64,000 nucleotides of DNA. It comes from a candidate division WOR-3 bacterium. Lineage in GTDB: Bacteria > Hydrothermota > UBA3072. The notes under the pieces are model-generated. The model did no database searches. It was not told the origin of the DNA and worked only from the letters and a program-made list of their open reading frames with translations. Location of the stretch: the NCBI GenBank assembly GCA_016930175.1, contig JAFGHJ010000046.1, positions 1,073-65,072 on the forward strand, in the 5' to 3' direction. Shown one piece after another: positions 1,554 through 37,729 of this stretch (position 1 is its first letter; the number at the start of each line of letters is the position of its first letter). The position numbers and the translations under genes were made by a program.

Positions 1554-1562
1554 GAGGATATA

Positions 1563-2291
1563 GTGGCACTACAATTTAAAGATCTTTTAGACGCAAGAGC
1601 ACATTTCGGACATAAAAGAAGAAACTGGAACCCAAAAATGGAACCTTATATCTACACAGAAAAAGATGGTTTACATATAATCGATCTTCGGAAATCTGTA
1701 GAATTATTAAAAGACGCCTACCGTATTGTATCCAATATTGCAGCAAAAGGAGGAGAATTTCTATTCGTAGGTACAAAAAAGCAGGCGCAGAATATAATAG
1801 AAGAAGCAGCAAAAAGAGTCAACGCCGCTTACGTTAAAGAACGATGGTTGGGTGGAACTCTCACAAACTTTAGCGTAATACGGAATAGTATCAATAAGTA
1901 TAACGAACTTTGCGAGCAGATAGAAAAAGAAGATTTCAAGGAGTTACAGTCAAAAACGCAAAGTCGTCTTCTAAGACAAAGAAACAAGATGAAAAAACAT
2001 TTTGATGGAATCCAGAATATGGAGAAAACACCTGATTTATTGTATGTAATAGACGTAAAACAGGAAGAGATTGCAATAAAAGAAGCTAATCTATTAGAAA
2101 TACCGGTTGTTGCAATAATAGATACTAATTCCGATCCCGAAATGGTAGATTATCCAATACCGGCAAATGACGATGCTATTGAGTCAATAAAACTAATAAC
2201 AAATATAATTGAGACAGCTATCATTGAAGGTAGAAAAAGATTCGACGAAGAACAGCAAATCAAAGAAAAAGAAGAAGTAAAAGAAAAATAA
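1563..2291 (+). CDS. rpsB: 30S ribosomal protein S2 (GTG start)
   Basis: MALQFKDLLDARAHFGHKRRNWNPKM... is the S2 signature. GTG start preceded by GATAGGAGGATA. Confidence 0.95.
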   Translation: MALQFKDLLDARAHFGHKRRNWNPKMEPYIYTEKDGLHIIDLRKSVELLKDAYRIVSNIAAKGGEFLFVGTKKQAQNIIEEAAKRVNAAYVKERWLGGTLTNFSVIRNSINKYNELCEQIEKEDFKELQSKTQSRLLRQRNKMKKHFDGIQNMEKTPDLLYVIDVKQEEIAIKEANLLEIPVVAIIDTNSDPEMVDYPIPANDDAIESIKLITNIIETAIIEGRKRFDEEQQIKEKEEVKEK

Positions 2292-2338
2292 AAATCCCTT
2301 GTCAAAAAATCTATAATAATTATTAAGAGGAGGTTCTT

Positions 2339-2938
2339 GTGGCTTCTGAAGTTGATATTACACTCATCAAGGAATTAAGAGCAAAAACAAACGCAGGTGT
2401 ACTGGATTGCAAAAATGCGTTGGCCGAATCAAAAGGCGATATTAAAGAAGCAATTAAAATCTTAAGAGAAAGAGGAATTGCAGAAGCAGCAAAAAAGATG
2501 GGGAGGTCTGCTAAAGAAGGCGTTATATATGCTTATATTCATCCCGGAGATCAAAAAGCCGGAGTGGTTGAATTAAATTGTGAAACTGATTTTGTTGCCA
2601 GAACCGATGAATTTAAAAATCTTGCGAAGGAAATCGCAATGCAAGTAGTTGCCTTCAATCCTATCTCGGTAGATAGAGAATCAGTGCCTGAAGAAGTACT
2701 AAAAGAAGAAAGAGCCATCTATGAAGAACAAGTAAAAAGAATGAACAAACCCGAAAAAATCCAAGAGAATATTATTGCCAACAAGCTTGAAAAATTTTAT
2801 AGTGAAGTAGTTCTATTGGAACAGAAATACTACAAGGACCCGTCAATGACTATAGGTGACCTGATAAAGGAAAAAATATCCGTTATTGGGGAAAATATAG
2901 TCGTAAAAAGATTCCAAAGGTTCCAGGTTGGAGAGTAA
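2339..2938 (+). CDS. tsf: Translation elongation factor Ts (short form, GTG start)
   Basis: 199 aa with the EF-Ts UBA-like N-terminus (ITLIKELRAKTNAGVLDCKNALAES) and the ETDFVA motif. Strong AAGAGGAGG RBS. Confidence 0.93.
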   Translation: MASEVDITLIKELRAKTNAGVLDCKNALAESKGDIKEAIKILRERGIAEAAKKMGRSAKEGVIYAYIHPGDQKAGVVELNCETDFVARTDEFKNLAKEIAMQVVAFNPISVDRESVPEEVLKEERAIYEEQVKRMNKPEKIQENIIANKLEKFYSEVVLLEQKYYKDPSMTIGDLIKEKISVIGENIVVKRFQRFQVGE

Positions 2939-3662
2939 GCCTAAATACCAAAGGATATTAATAAAATTAAGCGGAGAATTTCTTAAAAGTAAAGAAGAAG
3001 TTATTTCCTTTGAGAAATTGAGCCTCTTCGCTGAGGATATAAAACACCTCCACAAAAAAGGAGTCGAAATAGGGATAGTTGTGGGCGGCGGTAATATCTT
3101 AAGAGGATTAGAAGGTTCAAAAAAGCACCAAATATCATCTGCGGAACTGGACGAATTAGGAATGATAGCAACTATGATAAACGGTGGCGCTCTTTCTTTA
3201 GCCCTCAAAAAAATTAAAATACCTAACTCTATTCTCTCCGCAATACCAATTTCGCCCTCTGTAGGAGATCAATTTAACATACATAAAGCATTAAAATTAC
3301 TTGCGGAACGCAATGTTTTAATTTTTGTCGGAGGAACAAGCAATCCCTTTTTCACAACTGATACAGCTGCTGTTCTCCGTGCTCTACAGATTAAAGCTGA
3401 CGTACTGATTAAATCTACAAATGTGAAAGGAATTTATGATAAGGATCCAAACAAATTTCCTGACGCAAGATTTTACAAAGAGATTACTTACATAAAGGCA
3501 TTAAACCAAGATTTAAAAATAATGGACTTAACCGCATTTTCTCTGGCAATGAATCACAACTTACCTATAATTGTATTCAACGGGGAAGTCAAAAGTAATT
3601 TAAGAAAGGTATTTCTTGGGAAAAACGTTGGAACTATCATTAAAGGAGGAAACAATGGATAA
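2928..3662 (+). CDS. pyrH: UMP kinase (TTG start, overlaps tsf 3' end)
   Basis: ILIKLSGEFL...VVGGGNILRG... are the amino-acid kinase family motifs of PyrH. Confidence 0.92.
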   Translation: MESKPKYQRILIKLSGEFLKSKEEVISFEKLSLFAEDIKHLHKKGVEIGIVVGGGNILRGLEGSKKHQISSAELDELGMIATMINGGALSLALKKIKIPNSILSAIPISPSVGDQFNIHKALKLLAERNVLIFVGGTSNPFFTTDTAAVLRALQIKADVLIKSTNVKGIYDKDPNKFPDARFYKEITYIKALNQDLKIMDLTAFSLAMNHNLPIIVFNGEVKSNLRKVFLGKNVGTIIKGGNNG

Positions 3663-4212
3663 GGTACTCAAGAAACAAATGGTTGAAAAAATGGAAAAAA
3701 CATTCTCAATAGTTTCAGAAGAATTCGCCAACATAAAAACGGGAAGAGCTTCTCCGGCTCTTATAGAAGGCATCAAAGTTGAATATTATGGTACAAAAAC
3801 ACCCTTAAATCAACTTGCTTCGATTACAATTCCAGAAGCACATCTCATCGTAATTCATCCATTTGATGAAAAAGCTATAGAAAATATAGAAAAAGCTATA
3901 ATATCCTCAGATTTAGGAATGAATCCTTCCAATGACGGGTCGGTGCTCCGTATTCCCATCCCCCCGCTTACAGACGAGAGAAGAGAGGAATTAAAAAAGC
4001 TGGTCAACCGCCTCGCAGAAGAAGGAAAAGTGTCTCTCCGGAACATAAGAAGAGATGCAATAAAAGATATTCAGGATATAGCAAAAGAAGGTAAAATATC
4101 AAAAGACGACGAATTAAGATTCAAGGACGAAGTTCAAAAAATCACTGATCACTTTACCGACAAAATTAAAGATATTCTTATAAAGAAAGAAAAAGAAATT
4201 CTTAATGGCTAA
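3655..4212 (+). CDS. frr: Ribosome recycling factor
   Basis: MDKVLKKQMVEKMEKTF...IKTGRASPALIEGIKVEYYG is the RRF signature. Start moved to the ATG at 3655 behind an AGGAGG RBS; the ORF-track start at 3616 adds a non-conserved extension. Confidence 0.9.
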   Translation: MDKVLKKQMVEKMEKTFSIVSEEFANIKTGRASPALIEGIKVEYYGTKTPLNQLASITIPEAHLIVIHPFDEKAIENIEKAIISSDLGMNPSNDGSVLRIPIPPLTDERREELKKLVNRLAEEGKVSLRNIRRDAIKDIQDIAKEGKISKDDELRFKDEVQKITDHFTDKIKDILIKKEKEILNG

Positions 4213-4894
4213 AGAAAATATCCCTACCCATATTGCAATAATAATGGATGGGAACGGCAGATGGGCACAAGAAAAAAATCTGCCACGATTACAGGGCCAT
4301 CTAGCCGGAGTCAACGCCGTAAGAAGAGTGACTGAATATTGTCAGGAATTTAAAATTAAGTATCTGACTCTGTACGCTTTCTCTCGTGAGAACTGGGACA
4401 GACCAAAAGAAGAAGTAGAAGGATTAATGTCCCTTTTTTCCAAAGTAATAAGAGAAGAAATAAACGAATTAAAGAAAAATAGAATTAGAGTAAGATTTTT
4501 GGGGAAAATCAACGAGTTGCCTCCTGATGTTAAAAAATCAGCATTATGGATTCAGGAACAGACTAAAAACTTAGAGAAATTGAACCTCATACTGGCCTTT
4601 AACTACAGCGGAAGGTCGGAAATAATAGAAGCAGCAAATAAAGCTATCGAAATGGGTAAAAAGATAACGGAAGAAACTTTTAGGAATTTTTTATTTTTAC
4701 CTGATGTTCCCGACCCAGACCTGTTCATAAGAACCAGCGGAGAGCTGCGTATCTCGAACTTTCTACTTTACCAAATTGCTTATACAGAGTTATTTTTTAC
4801 CGAAGAACTCTGGCCGGATTTTAACAAAGATCAATTTATGAAAGCTATAAGATCTTATCAAAAGAGGGAAAGAAGATTCGGGACCATTCAATAG
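4205..4894 (+). CDS. uppS: Undecaprenyl-diphosphate synthase (cis-prenyltransferase)
   Basis: HIAIIMDGNGRWA... and the FSRENWDRP motif are UPP synthase hallmarks. Confidence 0.92.
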   Translation: MAKENIPTHIAIIMDGNGRWAQEKNLPRLQGHLAGVNAVRRVTEYCQEFKIKYLTLYAFSRENWDRPKEEVEGLMSLFSKVIREEINELKKNRIRVRFLGKINELPPDVKKSALWIQEQTKNLEKLNLILAFNYSGRSEIIEAANKAIEMGKKITEETFRNFLFLPDVPDPDLFIRTSGELRISNFLLYQIAYTELFFTEELWPDFNKDQFMKAIRSYQKRERRFGTIQ

Positions 4895-5742
4895 ATTTAA
4901 TACGTCGCTGGATAACGGCAATACTTTTTATACCTGCACTTGTCATTATTGCAAGGTCCGGTGGATTATATTTTTTAATTCTTGTAGAATTAGGTATTTT
5001 TCTCGGTGTATATGAATTCTGCGACATACTCAGAGAAAGAGGTTTAACACCTTATAAATCACTTGCTATAGTTTCCTCAATGATATTAGGTCTGAATGCT
5101 TACTTCCAAAGCCACCTCTTTACCGTTATTACAATTACAGCACTGGTTATTGTTGTGGCTTTCGCAGAACTTTTCAGACGAAAAAAAGAAGAAGCGATAT
5201 TTCATTTGTCCGGTACAGTATTTGGAGTAATTTATGTTGGCTGGTTATTCAGCCACCTCATACTTTTAAGTCAAATGCCTGAAGTCCTGGAGCCTTTCAC
5301 TTATAAAAATATTTTTGGTATACCGATACGTTTGGGTACGAGCCTTGCGTTGTTGCCATTTGTTCTCACCTGGTCTAACGATTCGGCGGCTTTTTTCGTT
5401 GGAAGAAAATTTGGTAAGACAAAATTCTTCCCGGTAATCTCACCTAAAAAAACCTGGGAAGGTGTAATGGGAGGAGCATTCGCCGCAATTCTCTCAGCTT
5501 TCATTTACCACTACTTATACGCATCCTATCTATCATGGTTCGACTGCGTAACTCTTGGTATCACGGTAGGAATTGTTGCTCCTATAGGCGATTTAGTAGA
5601 GTCAATGATAAAAAGAGACGTCAAAATAAAGGACGCTTCCGCTATAATTCCCGGACATGGAGGATTTCTTGATAGATTCGACTCATTACTTTTTACTGCT
5701 CCTCTTATATACTACTATATTAGATTTTTCGCGGTAAAATGA
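4876..5742 (+). CDS. cdsA: Phosphatidate cytidylyltransferase (CDP-diglyceride synthase); start codon uncertain, probably non-AUG (ATT at 4876 or ATA at 4900)
   Basis: The conserved CdsA N-terminal transmembrane region (..IRRWITAILFIPALVIIARSGG..) is encoded in frame from about 4894, upstream of the first ATG at 5080. There is no ATG, GTG or TTG between the in-frame stop at 4822 and 5080. ATT at 4876 lies 7 nt after an AGAGGG Shine-Dalgarno. C-terminal CTP_transf_1 motifs are present (WSNDSAAFFVGRKFGKTK, KTWEG). Confidence 0.8.
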   Translation: MRDHSIDLIRRWITAILFIPALVIIARSGGLYFLILVELGIFLGVYEFCDILRERGLTPYKSLAIVSSMILGLNAYFQSHLFTVITITALVIVVAFAELFRRKKEEAIFHLSGTVFGVIYVGWLFSHLILLSQMPEVLEPFTYKNIFGIPIRLGTSLALLPFVLTWSNDSAAFFVGRKFGKTKFFPVISPKKTWEGVMGGAFAAILSAFIYHYLYASYLSWFDCVTLGITVGIVAPIGDLVESMIKRDVKIKDASAIIPGHGGFLDRFDSLLFTAPLIYYYIRFFAVK

Positions 5743-8279: not shown

Positions 8280-8307
8280 TTGACTTTTACTATTAAAAAA
8301 CTATTAT
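8280..8307 (+). promoter_or_regulatory. Candidate promoter (TTGACT, 16 nt spacer, TATTAT) driving the cobalamin riboswitch
   Basis: Near-consensus -35/-10 hexamers at 8280-8285 and 8302-8307, immediately upstream of the riboswitch. Confidence 0.45.
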
Positions 8308-8314
8308 AATAATG

Positions 8315-8470
8315 AATAGCTAAGGGAAAGCGGTTAGAATCCGCTACAGCCCCGCTACTGTATTTGGCAACGAAAACTGCCAAGTTACCACTGGATTTAT
8401 TCCGGGAAGGTGCAGTGAGTAGGCCGGCCATAAGTCAGGAGACCTTCTATTTACAAGTACTCCGAGGGGA
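8315..8470 (+). promoter_or_regulatory. Cobalamin (adenosylcobalamin/B12) riboswitch
   Basis: Conserved AGGGAAAGCGGUUAGAAUCC...CAGCCCCGCUACUGU, then GCCACUGG...CGGGAAGG, then the B12 box AAGUCAGGAGACC. These are recalled hallmarks of the cobalamin riboswitch family (Rfam RF00174). A GAGGGGAG Shine-Dalgarno lies directly downstream. Confidence 0.8.
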
Positions 8471-8477
8471 GAAAACA

Positions 8478-8996
8478 ATAGATAAACTAAAAGAAATATC
8501 GTATGTAACAATATTTACAGCATTGGCTTTAGGCTTAGGGTACGCATTTGCACTTATCCCTAATTTTGAGCTTGTTTCTCCTACTGTTTTCCTATCAGGA
8601 GCACTATTTGGTATACGAACAGGTACAATGGTGGGAATTCTCACATATTTTATTTTCGGTTTACTAAATCCTTTTGGTATGTCTCCACTACCTCTGCTCT
8701 TGACACAGGTAATTGTGGGCGCCCTGTTGGGATTATCCGGAGGATTTTGCTATAAAAAAAGATGGAATAAAGCACACGTCATTCTACCTCTAGGCATCTT
8801 AATCACGCTTTTTTCTGATATACTAACTACATCGGCAGGGTTCATTTTATTCCCGACCAAAAAGAGCTTTCTGGCTTACTTTATTCTGGGACTGCCTTTT
8901 GTTATATGGCACGTCTTCACTCAGGGGATAATTTACGGTTTTGTTTTACCCCCAACAATTCAAAAAATCCAAAAAAGAAAAATAAACCACGGATGA
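8478..8996 (+). CDS. B12-riboswitch-controlled small polytopic membrane protein (about 6 TM; possible vitamin-uptake S-component/BtuM-like); start uncertain (ATA 8478 or TTG 8523)
   Basis: The ORF-track ATG at 8364 lies inside the riboswitch aptamer and cannot be the real start. After the aptamer there is no in-frame ATG before TM1. ATA at 8478 lies 6 nt after the GAGGGGAG SD and TTG is at 8523. The product is hydrophobic with glycine-rich TM helices. Confidence 0.55.
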   Translation: MDKLKEISYVTIFTALALGLGYAFALIPNFELVSPTVFLSGALFGIRTGTMVGILTYFIFGLLNPFGMSPLPLLLTQVIVGALLGLSGGFCYKKRWNKAHVILPLGILITLFSDILTTSAGFILFPTKKSFLAYFILGLPFVIWHVFTQGIIYGFVLPPTIQKIQKRKINHG

Positions 8997-9007
8997 ACAC
9001 GGATAAA

Positions 9008-9060
9008 CCCCACCCAACACACAGGAATAGGACGCAGATGAACGCAGATAAGCAGGATTT
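9008..9060 (+). repeat. Repeat copy 1: C-rich tract then GGACGCAGATGAACGCAGAT-AAGCAGGATTT
   Basis: Near-identical to 11301-11360, with one mismatch in the 20-mer core. An additional inverted 8-mer ATCTGCGT sits at 9144-9151. Confidence 0.5.
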
Positions 9061-9180
9061 AATTTTAAGTTGCTTTAATAAAATAAAAGAAACAGTGGAT
9101 CTGGGTGTTAATCTTAATATATCTGAGACAATCTGCGTGCTAATAAAATTTAATCAATGGCTAATTAAAAAGGAGGTTTT

Positions 9181-10920
9181 ATGCTATTAATTATACTAAG
9201 CGTAATGTATTTTGAATCAAAAGGAATAACCGTAACAGCAGACAGATTTGAACATCTCCCCTATCAAGTTGAAGTAATTGAAATTGAAGACATGCTTACA
9301 ATAGATGAATTAGGCGAAATACTGGAAAAAGAAGCAGGAGTTAAAATATACGGAAATGGCGATCCGAGTTCACTAACACAGGCAGCAGTGCACGGATATA
9401 CCGCCAAACATACACTTGTAATGTTAAACGGACATAGAATAAGTGACCCAAAAACAGGCGGATTAGACCTTTCTACATTCCCTTTAAGCGCAGTAAAGAA
9501 AATTGAAATAGTCAAAGGTTCATCTTCGGTATTTCAGGGTTCTAATGCAATTGGTGGGATTATAAACCTTGTTACCGGAAAAGAGACTAATGACATTAAA
9601 TTTCAGGGAAATACGAATTCCGCTTTAGGAGCAAATCTTCAGCTATACAAATTCGGCGTAAACGGAAATTTAAACCTTAAAAAAGGCGAAGGACAGAGGA
9701 GCAATACTGATTTTAAACATTATTCACTAGCTTTTAATTGGAATGATTTAAATTTTACCGGCAGTTATAAAGATCTCGGCGTACCCGGTGCTCTACCAGA
9801 CAGCGGTTTAATTCCAATATTTGGAGATTCAAGCGCAACCTCTCTTTTCGATAACCAGCAAACGCAATTTGCAGACCTCTCGTACAGCAAAATCTTTACG
9901 AACGGGGATATCGGTATACTAATAGAACCCGCAATAACCGGAGAATTGATTAAATATAACTATAAATACTCAGATTTTTTGACGGGAGACGAAATTACGC
10001 AAAACGACGAGTATAAATCCGCTGCAGGTCAATTCAATACAAAATTGTTATACAAAATGTTTACTATATCCATGAATCTTGAGAAAGATAAAGTATGGAT
10101 AGAACAATATAACCCTGGCTACAACAATTCTTTTTCATTTGAAGAGGAAAAAGCAGGAATAGTACTTTCGCTTTTCCATAAAAAGGAAAAGATAAATGTA
10201 TTTGCTTCAGCAAGAGAAGACTGGTACGGAAGCTTTGGATTACATCCATCCTTCACAATAGGAAGCAGAATCACCAGTCCTATCGAGATTTTCGCATCGG
10301 TAGGCTCCGGATTTCAGGCTCCAACACTCTACGATCTTTATTATCCAGACTTTTCTAACGCAGAACTTAAACCCGAACACTCTATCTCGTTAAACGGCGG
10401 ATTTAAAATAAAATACATTACAATCTCCGGATATATAGAGGAAATACATGACAGAATAGCGCTCGACGAAAACTGGCTACCGCAAAATATAGCCAAAAGC
10501 AGAATATTCGGAATCGACATAGAAGCCGACGGAGAATATAAAGACTTATCATATTCATTAATATATTCTTACCTCGACGGATATGACGAAGAAAACCGAA
10601 CAAAAAGAGAACTTCAGCATCAACCAAAACACTCTATCGCGGGTATTCTTTCTTACGAAGGTCCGATATCCGTCGAAGTATCGGGAAAGTGGACAGGAGA
10701 GAGAAAAAGATGGTTCTCGTTCGGAGGATGGAAAATAGAGAACCCTGCTTTCATCATCGATTTAGGAATAAGTAAAACTTTTAATGATTTTTCTGTGGGT
10801 TTTACAGTCGAAAATCTATTAAACACCGAATACATCGCGAGTTTCGGAAGCTCATACACAGACAGGGATTATCCTGGAATGGGAAGATACATAAGTTTTT
10901 GGGGCAAATACTCTTTATAA
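9181..10920 (+). CDS. btuB: TonB-dependent outer-membrane vitamin B12 receptor (BtuB-like)
   Basis: ITVTADRFEH (compare E. coli BtuB TonB box/plug VTANRFEQ), plug motifs LVMLNGHRI and NAIGGIINLVT, a beta-barrel body and a C-terminal aromatic residue. Sits downstream of the B12 riboswitch. AAAGGAGG RBS. Only 15 aa precede the TonB box. Confidence 0.85.
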   Translation: MLLIILSVMYFESKGITVTADRFEHLPYQVEVIEIEDMLTIDELGEILEKEAGVKIYGNGDPSSLTQAAVHGYTAKHTLVMLNGHRISDPKTGGLDLSTFPLSAVKKIEIVKGSSSVFQGSNAIGGIINLVTGKETNDIKFQGNTNSALGANLQLYKFGVNGNLNLKKGEGQRSNTDFKHYSLAFNWNDLNFTGSYKDLGVPGALPDSGLIPIFGDSSATSLFDNQQTQFADLSYSKIFTNGDIGILIEPAITGELIKYNYKYSDFLTGDEITQNDEYKSAAGQFNTKLLYKMFTISMNLEKDKVWIEQYNPGYNNSFSFEEEKAGIVLSLFHKKEKINVFASAREDWYGSFGLHPSFTIGSRITSPIEIFASVGSGFQAPTLYDLYYPDFSNAELKPEHSISLNGGFKIKYITISGYIEEIHDRIALDENWLPQNIAKSRIFGIDIEADGEYKDLSYSLIYSYLDGYDEENRTKRELQHQPKHSIAGILSYEGPISVEVSGKWTGERKRWFSFGGWKIENPAFIIDLGISKTFNDFSVGFTVENLLNTEYIASFGSSYTDRDYPGMGRYISFWGKYSL

Positions 10921-11170: not shown

Positions 11171-11288
11171 TGCTCGGTGGCCATAACGGAGAGGACATAC
11201 CCGTTCCCATTCCGAACACGGAAGTCAAGCTCTCCTGTGCTTATGGTATTGCCCTTTCGGGGGTGAGAGAGTAGGTCGCTGCCGGGCT
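11171..11288 (+). rRNA. rrf: 5S ribosomal RNA (stand-alone; no 16S or 23S in this window)
   Basis: UGCUCGGUGGCCAUAACGGAGAGG...CCGAACACGGAAGUCAAGC...GAGAGUAGGUCGCUGCCGGGCU matches universal 5S motifs. Followed by a T-run (11289-11300). Confidence 0.9.
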
Positions 11289-36808: not shown

Positions 36809-37156
36809 GGGGGCGAATTGGCTCTCGACGGGATACAACTGGATTGTAAGCTGCATGCCGAGCTGCCATAGCTCGAAAAACTATGGTATTTGTAATAAAT
36901 GGCAACTATAATTATGCCATGGCAGCTTAATTAAGCTGCTCGTCCTTTCCGGACGTTTTCTTCTTACTCCGGATGTGGGCGTCATAGAAAGAAGATAGGT
37001 TGCAATTTTGCCAGGGTTTTGCAGCCGAATAAAGACTGGCTTGGTTATTCTGATTCCTGTGATTGGGTAAAGAATAGCGACACTTAAACAATCACTAAGC
37101 ATGTAGAAGTTTTCAAACAGGTATTTCGGACGCGGGTTCGATTCCCGCCGCCTCCA
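36809..37156 (+). ncRNA. ssrA: tmRNA (SsrA); tag reading frame 36901-36930 encodes (A)GNYNYAMAA then stop
   Basis: 5' GGGGGCGAAUUGGCUCUCGACGGG and 3' GGACGCGGGUUCGAUUCCCGCCGCCUCCA form a 7 bp acceptor stem plus T-arm, with CCA not encoded. The internal ORF GGC AAC TAT AAT TAT GCC ATG GCA GCT TAA is followed by UUAAGCUGC, paralleling E. coli GCAGCUUAAUAACCUGC. Confidence 0.9.
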
Positions 37157-37180
37157 GTAAAACAAAACAGAGGAGGAATT

Positions 37181-37729
37181 ATGAAAATAACTCCTTTAGA
37201 TATTAGAAAACAGGAATTTAGAAAATCATTTAAAGGATATGATAAAAATGAGGTAGATATATTCCTGGAAATGTTAGCTAAAGAAATAGAAAATATTGTA
37301 CGAGATAATAAAAGGATGACCGATCAATTAAAGGAACTGGATTCCAAAATTGAAGATTATAAGAGAATGGAACAAACCCTTCAGGATACCCTTACCTCTA
37401 CCCAAAAAACCACAGACGAAATAAGAAGAAATGCCAGAAAAGAAGCCGAAATGATACTACAAAAAGCAAAATTGCAAGCCAGCGAAATAATAGAAAATGC
37501 TGCAGCTAAAGTTAAAGATCTACAAAGTCAAATAAGTGCTTTAAGAAATCAAAAAGACGGATTTGTTATACAATTACGCAGTTTTCTCTCATCTCAATTA
37601 AAAATGCTCGAAGAGGTCGAAATTATAAGTGTAAAAGAAAGAAATAAAAAATACTCTTCCGCGGAAAATGAAAAATCGGAAGAATTAGAGAAAACAAAAA
37701 AGAAAGTTCAGGAATTGTTCCAGGAGTAA
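37181..37729 (+). CDS. DivIVA-domain cell-division/polarity protein
   Basis: N-terminus ITPLDIRKQEFRKSFKGYDKNEVDIFLE is the DivIVA/GpsB lipid-binding domain, followed by coiled coils. GAGGAGG RBS. Confidence 0.85.
   Translation: MKITPLDIRKQEFRKSFKGYDKNEVDIFLEMLAKEIENIVRDNKRMTDQLKELDSKIEDYKRMEQTLQDTLTSTQKTTDEIRRNARKEAEMILQKAKLQASEIIENAAAKVKDLQSQISALRNQKDGFVIQLRSFLSSQLKMLEEVEIISVKERNKKYSSAENEKSEELEKTKKKVQELFQE

Follow-up and report, generated by a model that had tools for sequence, protein, structure and literature searches.

Probable translation initiation at AUU and AUA codons in cdsA and in a cobalamin riboswitch gene of the WOR-3 lineage

In Escherichia coli, AUU start codons are established for infC and pcnB only, two in about 4,300 genes, and in reporters of the same organism initiation from AUA, AUC, AUU or CUG reaches about 1-2% of that from AUG (Hecht et al., bioRxiv 10.1101/063800). 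Where non-AUG starts are conserved, they are thought to set or to regulate expression (PMC5499595). We report a comparative analysis of two genes that lie in a 64,000-nucleotide stretch of DNA, referred to hereafter as the window (assembly GCA_016930175.1, contig JAFGHJ010000046.1, positions 1,073 to 65,072 of the forward strand), from an uncultured bacterium of the WOR-3 lineage ('Ca. Stahliibacteriota'), a sequence of the metagenome-assembled genome (MAG) type. For both of them, namely cdsA, which encodes phosphatidate cytidylyltransferase, and a gene that follows a cobalamin (B12) riboswitch, here called the riboswitch gene, we consider it likely that translation begins at a near-cognate codon: AUU at position 4876 (or, less likely, AUA at 4891) in cdsA and AUA at 8478 in the riboswitch gene. 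Each of the two has no canonical start near its N-terminus, a fixed start column among its relatives and a Shine-Dalgarno (SD) sequence at functional spacing, the features by which the near-cognate class is recognised. In both genes the codon would be read by the initiator tRNA (fMet-tRNA).

The proposed cdsA start resembles those of infC and pcnB in combining a near-cognate AUU with an SD, in the conservation of the codon and in having a product that the cell needs in controlled or low amounts. It differs from that of infC, where the AUU senses initiation factor IF3 and thereby serves autoregulation; the cdsA AUU is a putative start recognised from sequence. It also appears to be locked by a phenylalanine codon in the RRFG motif of the upstream gene, uppS (undecaprenyl-diphosphate synthase), a constraint that is not described for infC or pcnB. 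As at the familiar coupled junctions of the ATGA or TTGA type, the cdsA start is found within or at the end of uppS, and four of the 31 uppS-cdsA junctions compared here have TTGA at +15 nt from the ATT; unlike at such junctions, the codon that overlaps the uppS stop has in most cases degenerated into GTA, TTA or ATA, which leaves the ATT, 16 nt before the stop, as the sole start-like codon.

The riboswitch gene is arranged in the manner of genes under translational cobalamin riboswitches, such as E. coli btuB, with an RF00174 element followed by the SD of a transport gene and with a TonB-dependent receptor nearby. Unlike at btuB, the first gene here encodes a solitary protein resembling the S component of energy-coupling factor (ECF) transporters and has an AUA start in nine of 13 orthologues, and the occlusion of its SD is a proposal drawn from the arrangement of the sequence elements. 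A six-helix S-component fold under a B12 riboswitch recalls the ECF S-component-like B12 transporters of the BtuM/CbrT type, from which the product of the riboswitch gene differs in that its sequence does not significantly match any solved B12-specific S component. AUU, AUA, AUC and CUG are already known as minor bacterial start codons and the present cases fit that kind; what is new is the genes, the lineage and the RRFG overlap as a structural reason for the cdsA AUU. Our search of the literature brought up no study of the start codons used in WOR-3 or Stahlbacteria, nor one of a non-AUG start of cdsA; in the table of a survey from 2006, cdsA of B. burgdorferi (117772-116825) is listed among the genes overlooked by annotation (PMC1386717).

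The start column of the riboswitch gene

With the CdsA protein as query, genomes and metagenomes were scanned for the relatives used throughout this work (60-96% identity), which carry the labels candidate division WOR-3, TA06 or 'Ca. Stahlbacteria'; the NCBI name of the last is now Stahliibacteriota. Once duplicates had been removed, the uppS-cdsA junction was represented by 31 distinct sequences and the riboswitch gene by 13 distinct orthologues, from MAGs and metagenome contigs. Within the window itself, 62 stop-to-stop open reading frames (ORFs), each with a minimum of 90 codons, made up the set for comparison. By a canonical start we mean ATG, GTG or TTG, and offsets at cdsA are counted from the ATT at 4876 (= 0).

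Judged by the alignment of orthologues, the evidence for the start is cleaner for the riboswitch gene than it is for cdsA. The start column reads ATA in nine of the orthologues, ATG in three and TTG in one, and it is always preceded by the SD GAGGGGAG, which has a duplex energy of -8.3 kcal/mol; the sequence CTCCGAGGGGAG is identical in 12 of them. The A-rich spacer between SD and start column measures 4, 5, 6 or 7 nt, so that the frame is not kept upstream. Downstream of the ATA column there are zero indels, and the first 20 codons vary at 7, 2 and 12 sites in the first, second and third codon position, respectively. The proteins of the ATG-bearing relatives begin M(E/K)K(L/I)KEISY, as in MEKLKEISY.

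The in-frame canonical codons that the window offers are TTG 8364 and GTG 8415, both inside the aptamer, TTG 8523 downstream of the ATA, and, as the first in-frame ATG codons, 8628 and 8679 deep within the protein. In relatives, stop codons interrupt the frame between aptamer and ATA, so that the TTG and GTG within the aptamer are excluded as starts, and five relatives are without any canonical start within 40 codons. The initial annotation had proposed the ATA at 8478, 6 nt after an SD, and this part of it stands; its further statement, that the only in-frame ATG lies inside the aptamer, has to be corrected, because ATG 8312 is out of frame and the in-frame triplet near it is a stop (TGA 8313-8315).

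Public gene calls at this locus follow other codons. One NCBI protein (P0121; 157 aa; 'hypothetical protein JW879_09665 [candidate division WOR-3 bacterium]'; 99% identical) has the length and sequence that translation of the window gene from TTG 8523 would give. Where a genome carries the ATA, gene callers either extend the gene into the riboswitch (VSRTAISQETCY...) or truncate it (LALGLG..., VYIPNF..., MVGIL...).

The aptamer model ends at 8465, which falls inside the SD, and a small CUCC/GGAG hairpin over the SD is found in both the minimum free energy and the centroid folds. It is plausible that the binding of B12 occludes the SD and that control is exerted at translation: the B12-bound aptamer would probably hide the invariant SD, and the weak AUA would keep the level of the S-component-like protein low even when the gene is de-repressed.

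Placement of this protein among the S components rests on a sub-threshold Pfam match together with a fold search, because the sequence searches gave nothing significant. The match to ECF_trnsprt (PF12822) scores 27.0 bits, below the cut-off of 30.7, and aligns residues 10-152 to positions 6-164 of the 169 in the profile; for many of the relatives, Pfam hits are precomputed in the database. All matches to NCBIfam profiles were far below their cut-offs, and a PDB sequence search returned nothing significant, with the B12-specific 6fnp_A at E = 3.3. An AlphaFold (AF2) model built from an alignment of eight sequences, which is of moderate confidence (pLDDT 72, pTM 0.66), has six helices, the first of them from residue 2. 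Its best fold matches in the PDB are the ECF S components PanT, ThiT, RibU and FolT (TM 0.42-0.63), and the 17 best are all S components save two glycine-receptor chains at a probability of at most 0.2, the top probability being near 1.0. Given the riboswitch upstream and the TonB-dependent receptor downstream, we presume that the modelled protein is an S-component-like protein for corrinoid uptake. The spacer of about 185 nt between the two genes (8996-9180) holds a mechanical ORF (8906-9190) that overlaps both, and the receptor has a strong SD of its own.

The uppS-cdsA junction

The frame of cdsA is -1 relative to that of uppS, the product of which ends in KRERRFGTIQ* (stop TAG 4892-4894) and whose coding sequence overlaps the proposed cdsA start. 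The first canonical in-frame codon, ATG 5080, is codon 85 of the open frame, and this makes cdsA an outlier, since each of the other 61 ORFs of the window has a canonical start no more than 32 codons from its upstream stop. In the relatives, the upstream in-frame stop lies between -51 and -3 nt relative to the ATT, and 26 of the 31 junctions have zero canonical starts between this stop and the first transmembrane helix (TM1). We can thus confirm the particulars from which the initial annotation set out, which were the TAA at 4822, the want of a canonical start before ATG 5080 and an AGAGGG 7 nt before the ATT at 4876.

Read from the ATT, CdsA aligns by its residues 10-285 to positions 2-264 of the 264 in the Pfam profile CTP_transf_1 (PF01148), with E = 4.6e-63 and 214 bits against a cut-off of 24, and is in this sense a full-length member of the family. 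The nearest solved relative is TmCdsA (PDB 4q2e/4q2g; E = 9e-25 for 4q2g). The ATG at 5080 corresponds to residue 69, and a protein begun there would lose about 60 profile positions; the earlier expectation that such a start would delete TM1 and TM2 agrees with the Pfam alignment, which adds part of TM3 to the loss. The alignment of CdsA orthologues that had been proposed as a check shows that the relatives do not begin at the position of Met 5080. This ATG is found in the window sequence only, the relatives having Leu there (TTG, TTA or CTN). Over the 180 nt from the uppS stop to ATG 5080 (4900-5079; +24 to +204), the pairwise ratio of non-synonymous to synonymous substitution (dN/dS) against the window is 0.05-0.12, and it is equally 0.05-0.12 downstream of 5080; the differences upstream fall mostly on third codon positions. 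From this ratio it follows that the segment is translated and under strong purifying selection.

The same results allow us to judge whether the canonical or annotated starts might be the real ones, with a truncated CdsA made from ATG 5080, the transporter made from TTG 8523 and the frames upstream of both left untranslated. Gene callers do pick such starts, as P0121 and the CdsA calls of 216-283 aa among the relatives testify, but neither codon is conserved (Leu codons take their place in the relatives) and neither has an SD, the duplex energies being +1.0 kcal/mol at ATG 5080 and +0.9 kcal/mol at TTG 8523. Moreover, the segments upstream of both are under purifying selection as protein, and the truncation would cost not only the CdsA helices named above but also half of helix 1 of the S component. 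The canonical codons chosen for cdsA in the relatives show no conservation and fall anywhere between +15 and +216, a scatter that has the look of mis-calling. We regard truncated products of this kind as very improbable.

In neighbouring lineages (Krumholzibacteria, UBP1 and others) the first helix, for example KRIVASVIFIPCLIVIARRGGYY, is encoded behind an ordinary ATG. Proteins 52-58% identical to CdsA begin MRINLIRRL or MKKDDLTRRL, 2-4 codons past the ATT column, and the CdsA starts of Krumholzibacteria are ATG codons 11-29 codons upstream of the point at which the alignment begins at TM1. Two CdsA calls among the relatives (P0001 and P0027; 310 and 316 aa) make use of an in-frame ATG 22-28 codons upstream of the ATT column, which gives an overlap of 65-85 nt with uppS; both are probably chance calls of a long ORF, though they could be real alternative starts.

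The 4876 column itself reads ATT in 30 of the 31 junctions, and the lone exception (L095, GTT) bears a canonical TTG at +15. At three junctions (L009, L091 and L092) an in-frame stop stands one codon before the ATT, which is there the only near-cognate codon ahead of TM1. The distance from the ATT to the uppS stop downstream of it is 16 nt in most junctions and 13 or 22 nt in the others.

That canonical starts were once present and have been destroyed by sequencing or assembly errors, whether substitutions or indels, was an option raised by the initial annotation beside that of true non-AUG initiation. All that speaks for it is the absent canonical start and the MAG-type sequence. The same codons recur in independent orthologues (30 of 31 for ATT and nine of 13 for ATA) at 60-96% protein identity and with the frames intact; their recurrence in independent assemblies excludes sequencing error, to which we assign a negligible probability, and the comparison of orthologues supports non-AUG initiation for both genes.

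The position of the cdsA frame, at -1 relative to uppS and overlapping it by at least 19 nt in all relatives, would also suit a fusion of UppS and CdsA made by programmed -1 ribosomal frameshifting in the last part of uppS, for which no cdsA start would be needed. The stop before the ATT in L009, L091 and L092 confines any such shift to about 19 nt (AAG ATT CGG GAC CAT TCA GTA A), however, and this stretch holds no slippery heptamer of the form X XXY YYZ. No stimulatory structure was seen, although no search for one was made, and sister phyla have separate, ATG-started cdsA genes. Frameshifting is, on these grounds, hardly credible.

A more serious competitor is the ATA at 4891, at which ribosomes ending at the overlapping uppS stop (ATAG, like ATGA) would re-initiate. 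Its column, +15, reads ATA, GTA, TTA, CTA, ACG or TTG among the relatives and is not conserved as a start. In four of them (L008, L107, L095 and L012) it forms a canonical start over the uppS stop (TTGA); other junctions have GTAA or TTAA, and CTA or ACG occur where the uppS stop lies further downstream. The annotated Met of P0004, a relative known from its protein only, which begins MNLSRRW, aligns to the same column, and the N-terminal tail that would result from AUA 4891 resembles in length those of the sister-clade starts quoted above. Against this, 19 of the 31 junctions have GTA, TTA, CTA or ACG in the column, codons that each differ from AUG at two bases, and all 19 are without a canonical start before TM1 and all have ATT at 0. 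The ATA is not conserved even in the closest clade of the window, in which L083, L084 and L004 have GTA, and its SD is the weaker, with a duplex energy of -4.0 kcal/mol vs -6.3 kcal/mol for the ATT at 4876. To judge from these sequences, the +15 column looks like a classic start/stop overlap that has decayed, and initiation at AUA 4891 appears unlikely.

Several points nevertheless weigh against the starts that we propose. The assignments in both genes derive from the comparison of sequences, and the SD duplex energies were calculated with a generic anti-SD, which may differ from the 16S rRNA 3' end of the lineage. For cdsA in particular, the purine richness of the AGAGGG comes largely free from the K-R-E-R-R codons of uppS. 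The TT of the ATT is forced, being part of the codon for Phe in the conserved RRFG motif, and the A is the wobble base of a uppS Arg or Lys codon (AGA, CGA or AAA); elsewhere in uppS, conserved Arg/Lys codons have A as their third base in 12-27 of the 31 junctions, with an A fraction of 0.70 overall. Finally, cdsA may truly begin at the +15 TTG in the four relatives that have it, and the window has two competing near-cognate codons.

We also considered the A of ATT 4876 as a signal of selection, but 30 of 31 is not significant given the relatedness of the sequences and offers weak support at most. Because the conservation of the ATT is, by itself, weak evidence, the case for it rests mainly on exclusion. 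By this argument the ATT at 4876 is favoured as the cdsA start, rather than the ATA at 4891.

With initiation at AUU 4876, cdsA is probably coupled to uppS, because the uppS stop is only 16 nt downstream of the AUU; ribosomes that have finished uppS would pass to the cdsA start. A change of the AUU to AUG is barred, as it would replace the Phe of the RRFG motif, and the weak cdsA start is therefore frozen in place by the overlap. A likely effect of the frozen AUU would be a low and fixed ratio of CdsA to UppS.

Table 1. Features of the window that bear on the two proposed starts, with positions counted from its first letter.
Feature	Position	Strand	Remarks
uppS (undecaprenyl-diphosphate synthase)	4205..4894	+	Pfam Prenyltransf, E = 8e-85; ATG start conserved in relatives
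In-frame TAA opening the cdsA frame	4822..4824	+	frame open from 4825 to 5742
SD-like AGAGGG	4863..4868	+	inside the uppS coding sequence, 7 nt before ATT 4876
cdsA (phosphatidate cytidylyltransferase), proposed	4876..5742	+	288 codons + stop
ATT, proposed cdsA start	4876..4878	+	AG[A TT]C: third base of a uppS Arg codon and first two bases of a Phe codon
ATA, alternative cdsA start	4891..4893	+	overlaps the uppS stop (ATAG)
ATG, first canonical in-frame codon of cdsA	5080..5082	+	inside TM3; not conserved
Cobalamin riboswitch aptamer	8281..8465	+	RF00174, 90.3 bits vs gathering threshold of 31.5; full model, 1-189
SD GAGGGGAG	8464..8471	+	3' edge of the aptamer; can pair with CUCC 8460-8463
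ATA, proposed start of the riboswitch gene	8478..8480	+	6 nt after the SD; in frame with the ORF ending at 8996
ECF S-component-like membrane protein	8478..8996	+	172 aa
TTG	8523..8525	+	called start implied by P0121; TTA in relatives; SD duplex +0.9 kcal/mol (no SD)
TonB-dependent receptor	9181..10920	+	Pfam Plug and TonB_dep_Rec_b-barrel; conserved ATG after AAGGAGG

Start codons elsewhere in the window and its relatives

The initial annotation had suggested that two such cases in one window might reflect a lineage habit of AUU/AUA initiation, and our comparison does not demonstrate such a habit. Twelve neighbouring genes, which include rplM, rpsI, rpsB, tsf, pyrH, frr, uppS, dxr, rseP, the TonB-dependent receptor and two others, start at ATG, GTG or TTG, and their start columns are conserved in the relatives. 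A scan of the 62 ORFs of the window for a near-cognate codon with an SD gave no further convincing candidate, and inspection by eye of ten ORFs in which the SD was weak or the ATG came late showed plausible canonical starts in all of them.

Among the twelve genes there is one exception, in uppS of a single 4.1-kb contig (L099, about 2600-2632, at the frr-uppS junction), where ATG is changed to TTT (tcaTTTATTAAg). The next codon there is ATT, which overlaps the frr stop; the sister contig L103 reads aATGATTAAg. It is possible that this is a third near-cognate start in the lineage, or else that uppS of L099 starts at the internal Met of IIMDGNGRW.

Two near-cognate starts in 62 ORFs is a share well above that of E. 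coli, with its infC and pcnB, and might be taken as the mark of a lineage in which start discrimination is relaxed, for instance by an altered IF3 or initiator-tRNA anticodon stem, and in which many genes are initiated at AUU or AUA. Were this so, current gene calls in the phylum would be systematically wrong at their 5' ends. The support is thin, comprising the two conserved cases among the 62 ORFs and the possible third in uppS of L099, and a generally relaxed choice of start codon is not established by two in 62. As to the components that such a change might involve, neither infC nor a gene for the initiator tRNA occurs in the window or at the loci of the relatives, and a motif search found no IF3-like ORF in the window; the window has no tRNA genes, only a tmRNA gene, and 37 loci yielded only one tRNA-Leu gene. 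We think relaxed discrimination improbable. The presence of AUG or UUG in the same column of the riboswitch gene in sister genomes points instead to gene-specific tuning of expression and not to a different decoding system.

Conserved GTG and TTG starts are found in several housekeeping genes of the window (at 1554-3662 and elsewhere), namely rpsB (GTG), tsf (GTG), pyrH (TTG), a nadD-like gene (TTG) and a recG-like gene (TTG), and the share of canonical starts other than ATG is fairly high for an AT-rich genome. The window also contains a 5S rRNA gene (11173-11287, + strand; RF00001, 90.7 bits), which stands alone, with no 23S or 16S match in the 64 kb, and seems to be unlinked from an rRNA operon. 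The tmRNA gene (36809-37159, + strand; 174.5 bits) encodes the tag peptide GNYNYAMAA, and its 3' end is overlapped by an open frame (37088-37729) for which the likely start is an ATG at codon 31, with a strong SD, downstream of the tmRNA.

Consequences for annotation and for the lineage

Public calls for the two genes are inconsistent within the lineage, the lengths given ranging from 216 to 316 aa for CdsA and from 107 to 202 aa for the transporter. Mis-called starts of this kind cut into membrane helices or run into the riboswitch, and they corrupt protein families, topology predictions and structure models. Both loci are also useful as test cases, for start-site predictors and for the tolerance of near-cognate starts in candidate phyla.

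On the reading that we consider likely, the two genes represent cases of AUU and AUA initiation that are conserved across species of an uncultured phylum, at a time when very few bacterial examples of such initiation are on record. The start column of the riboswitch gene, which follows an invariant SD, is occupied by AUA, AUG or UUG depending on the genome, and cdsA would provide a clear example of how the overlap of two genes constrains the evolution of a start codon.

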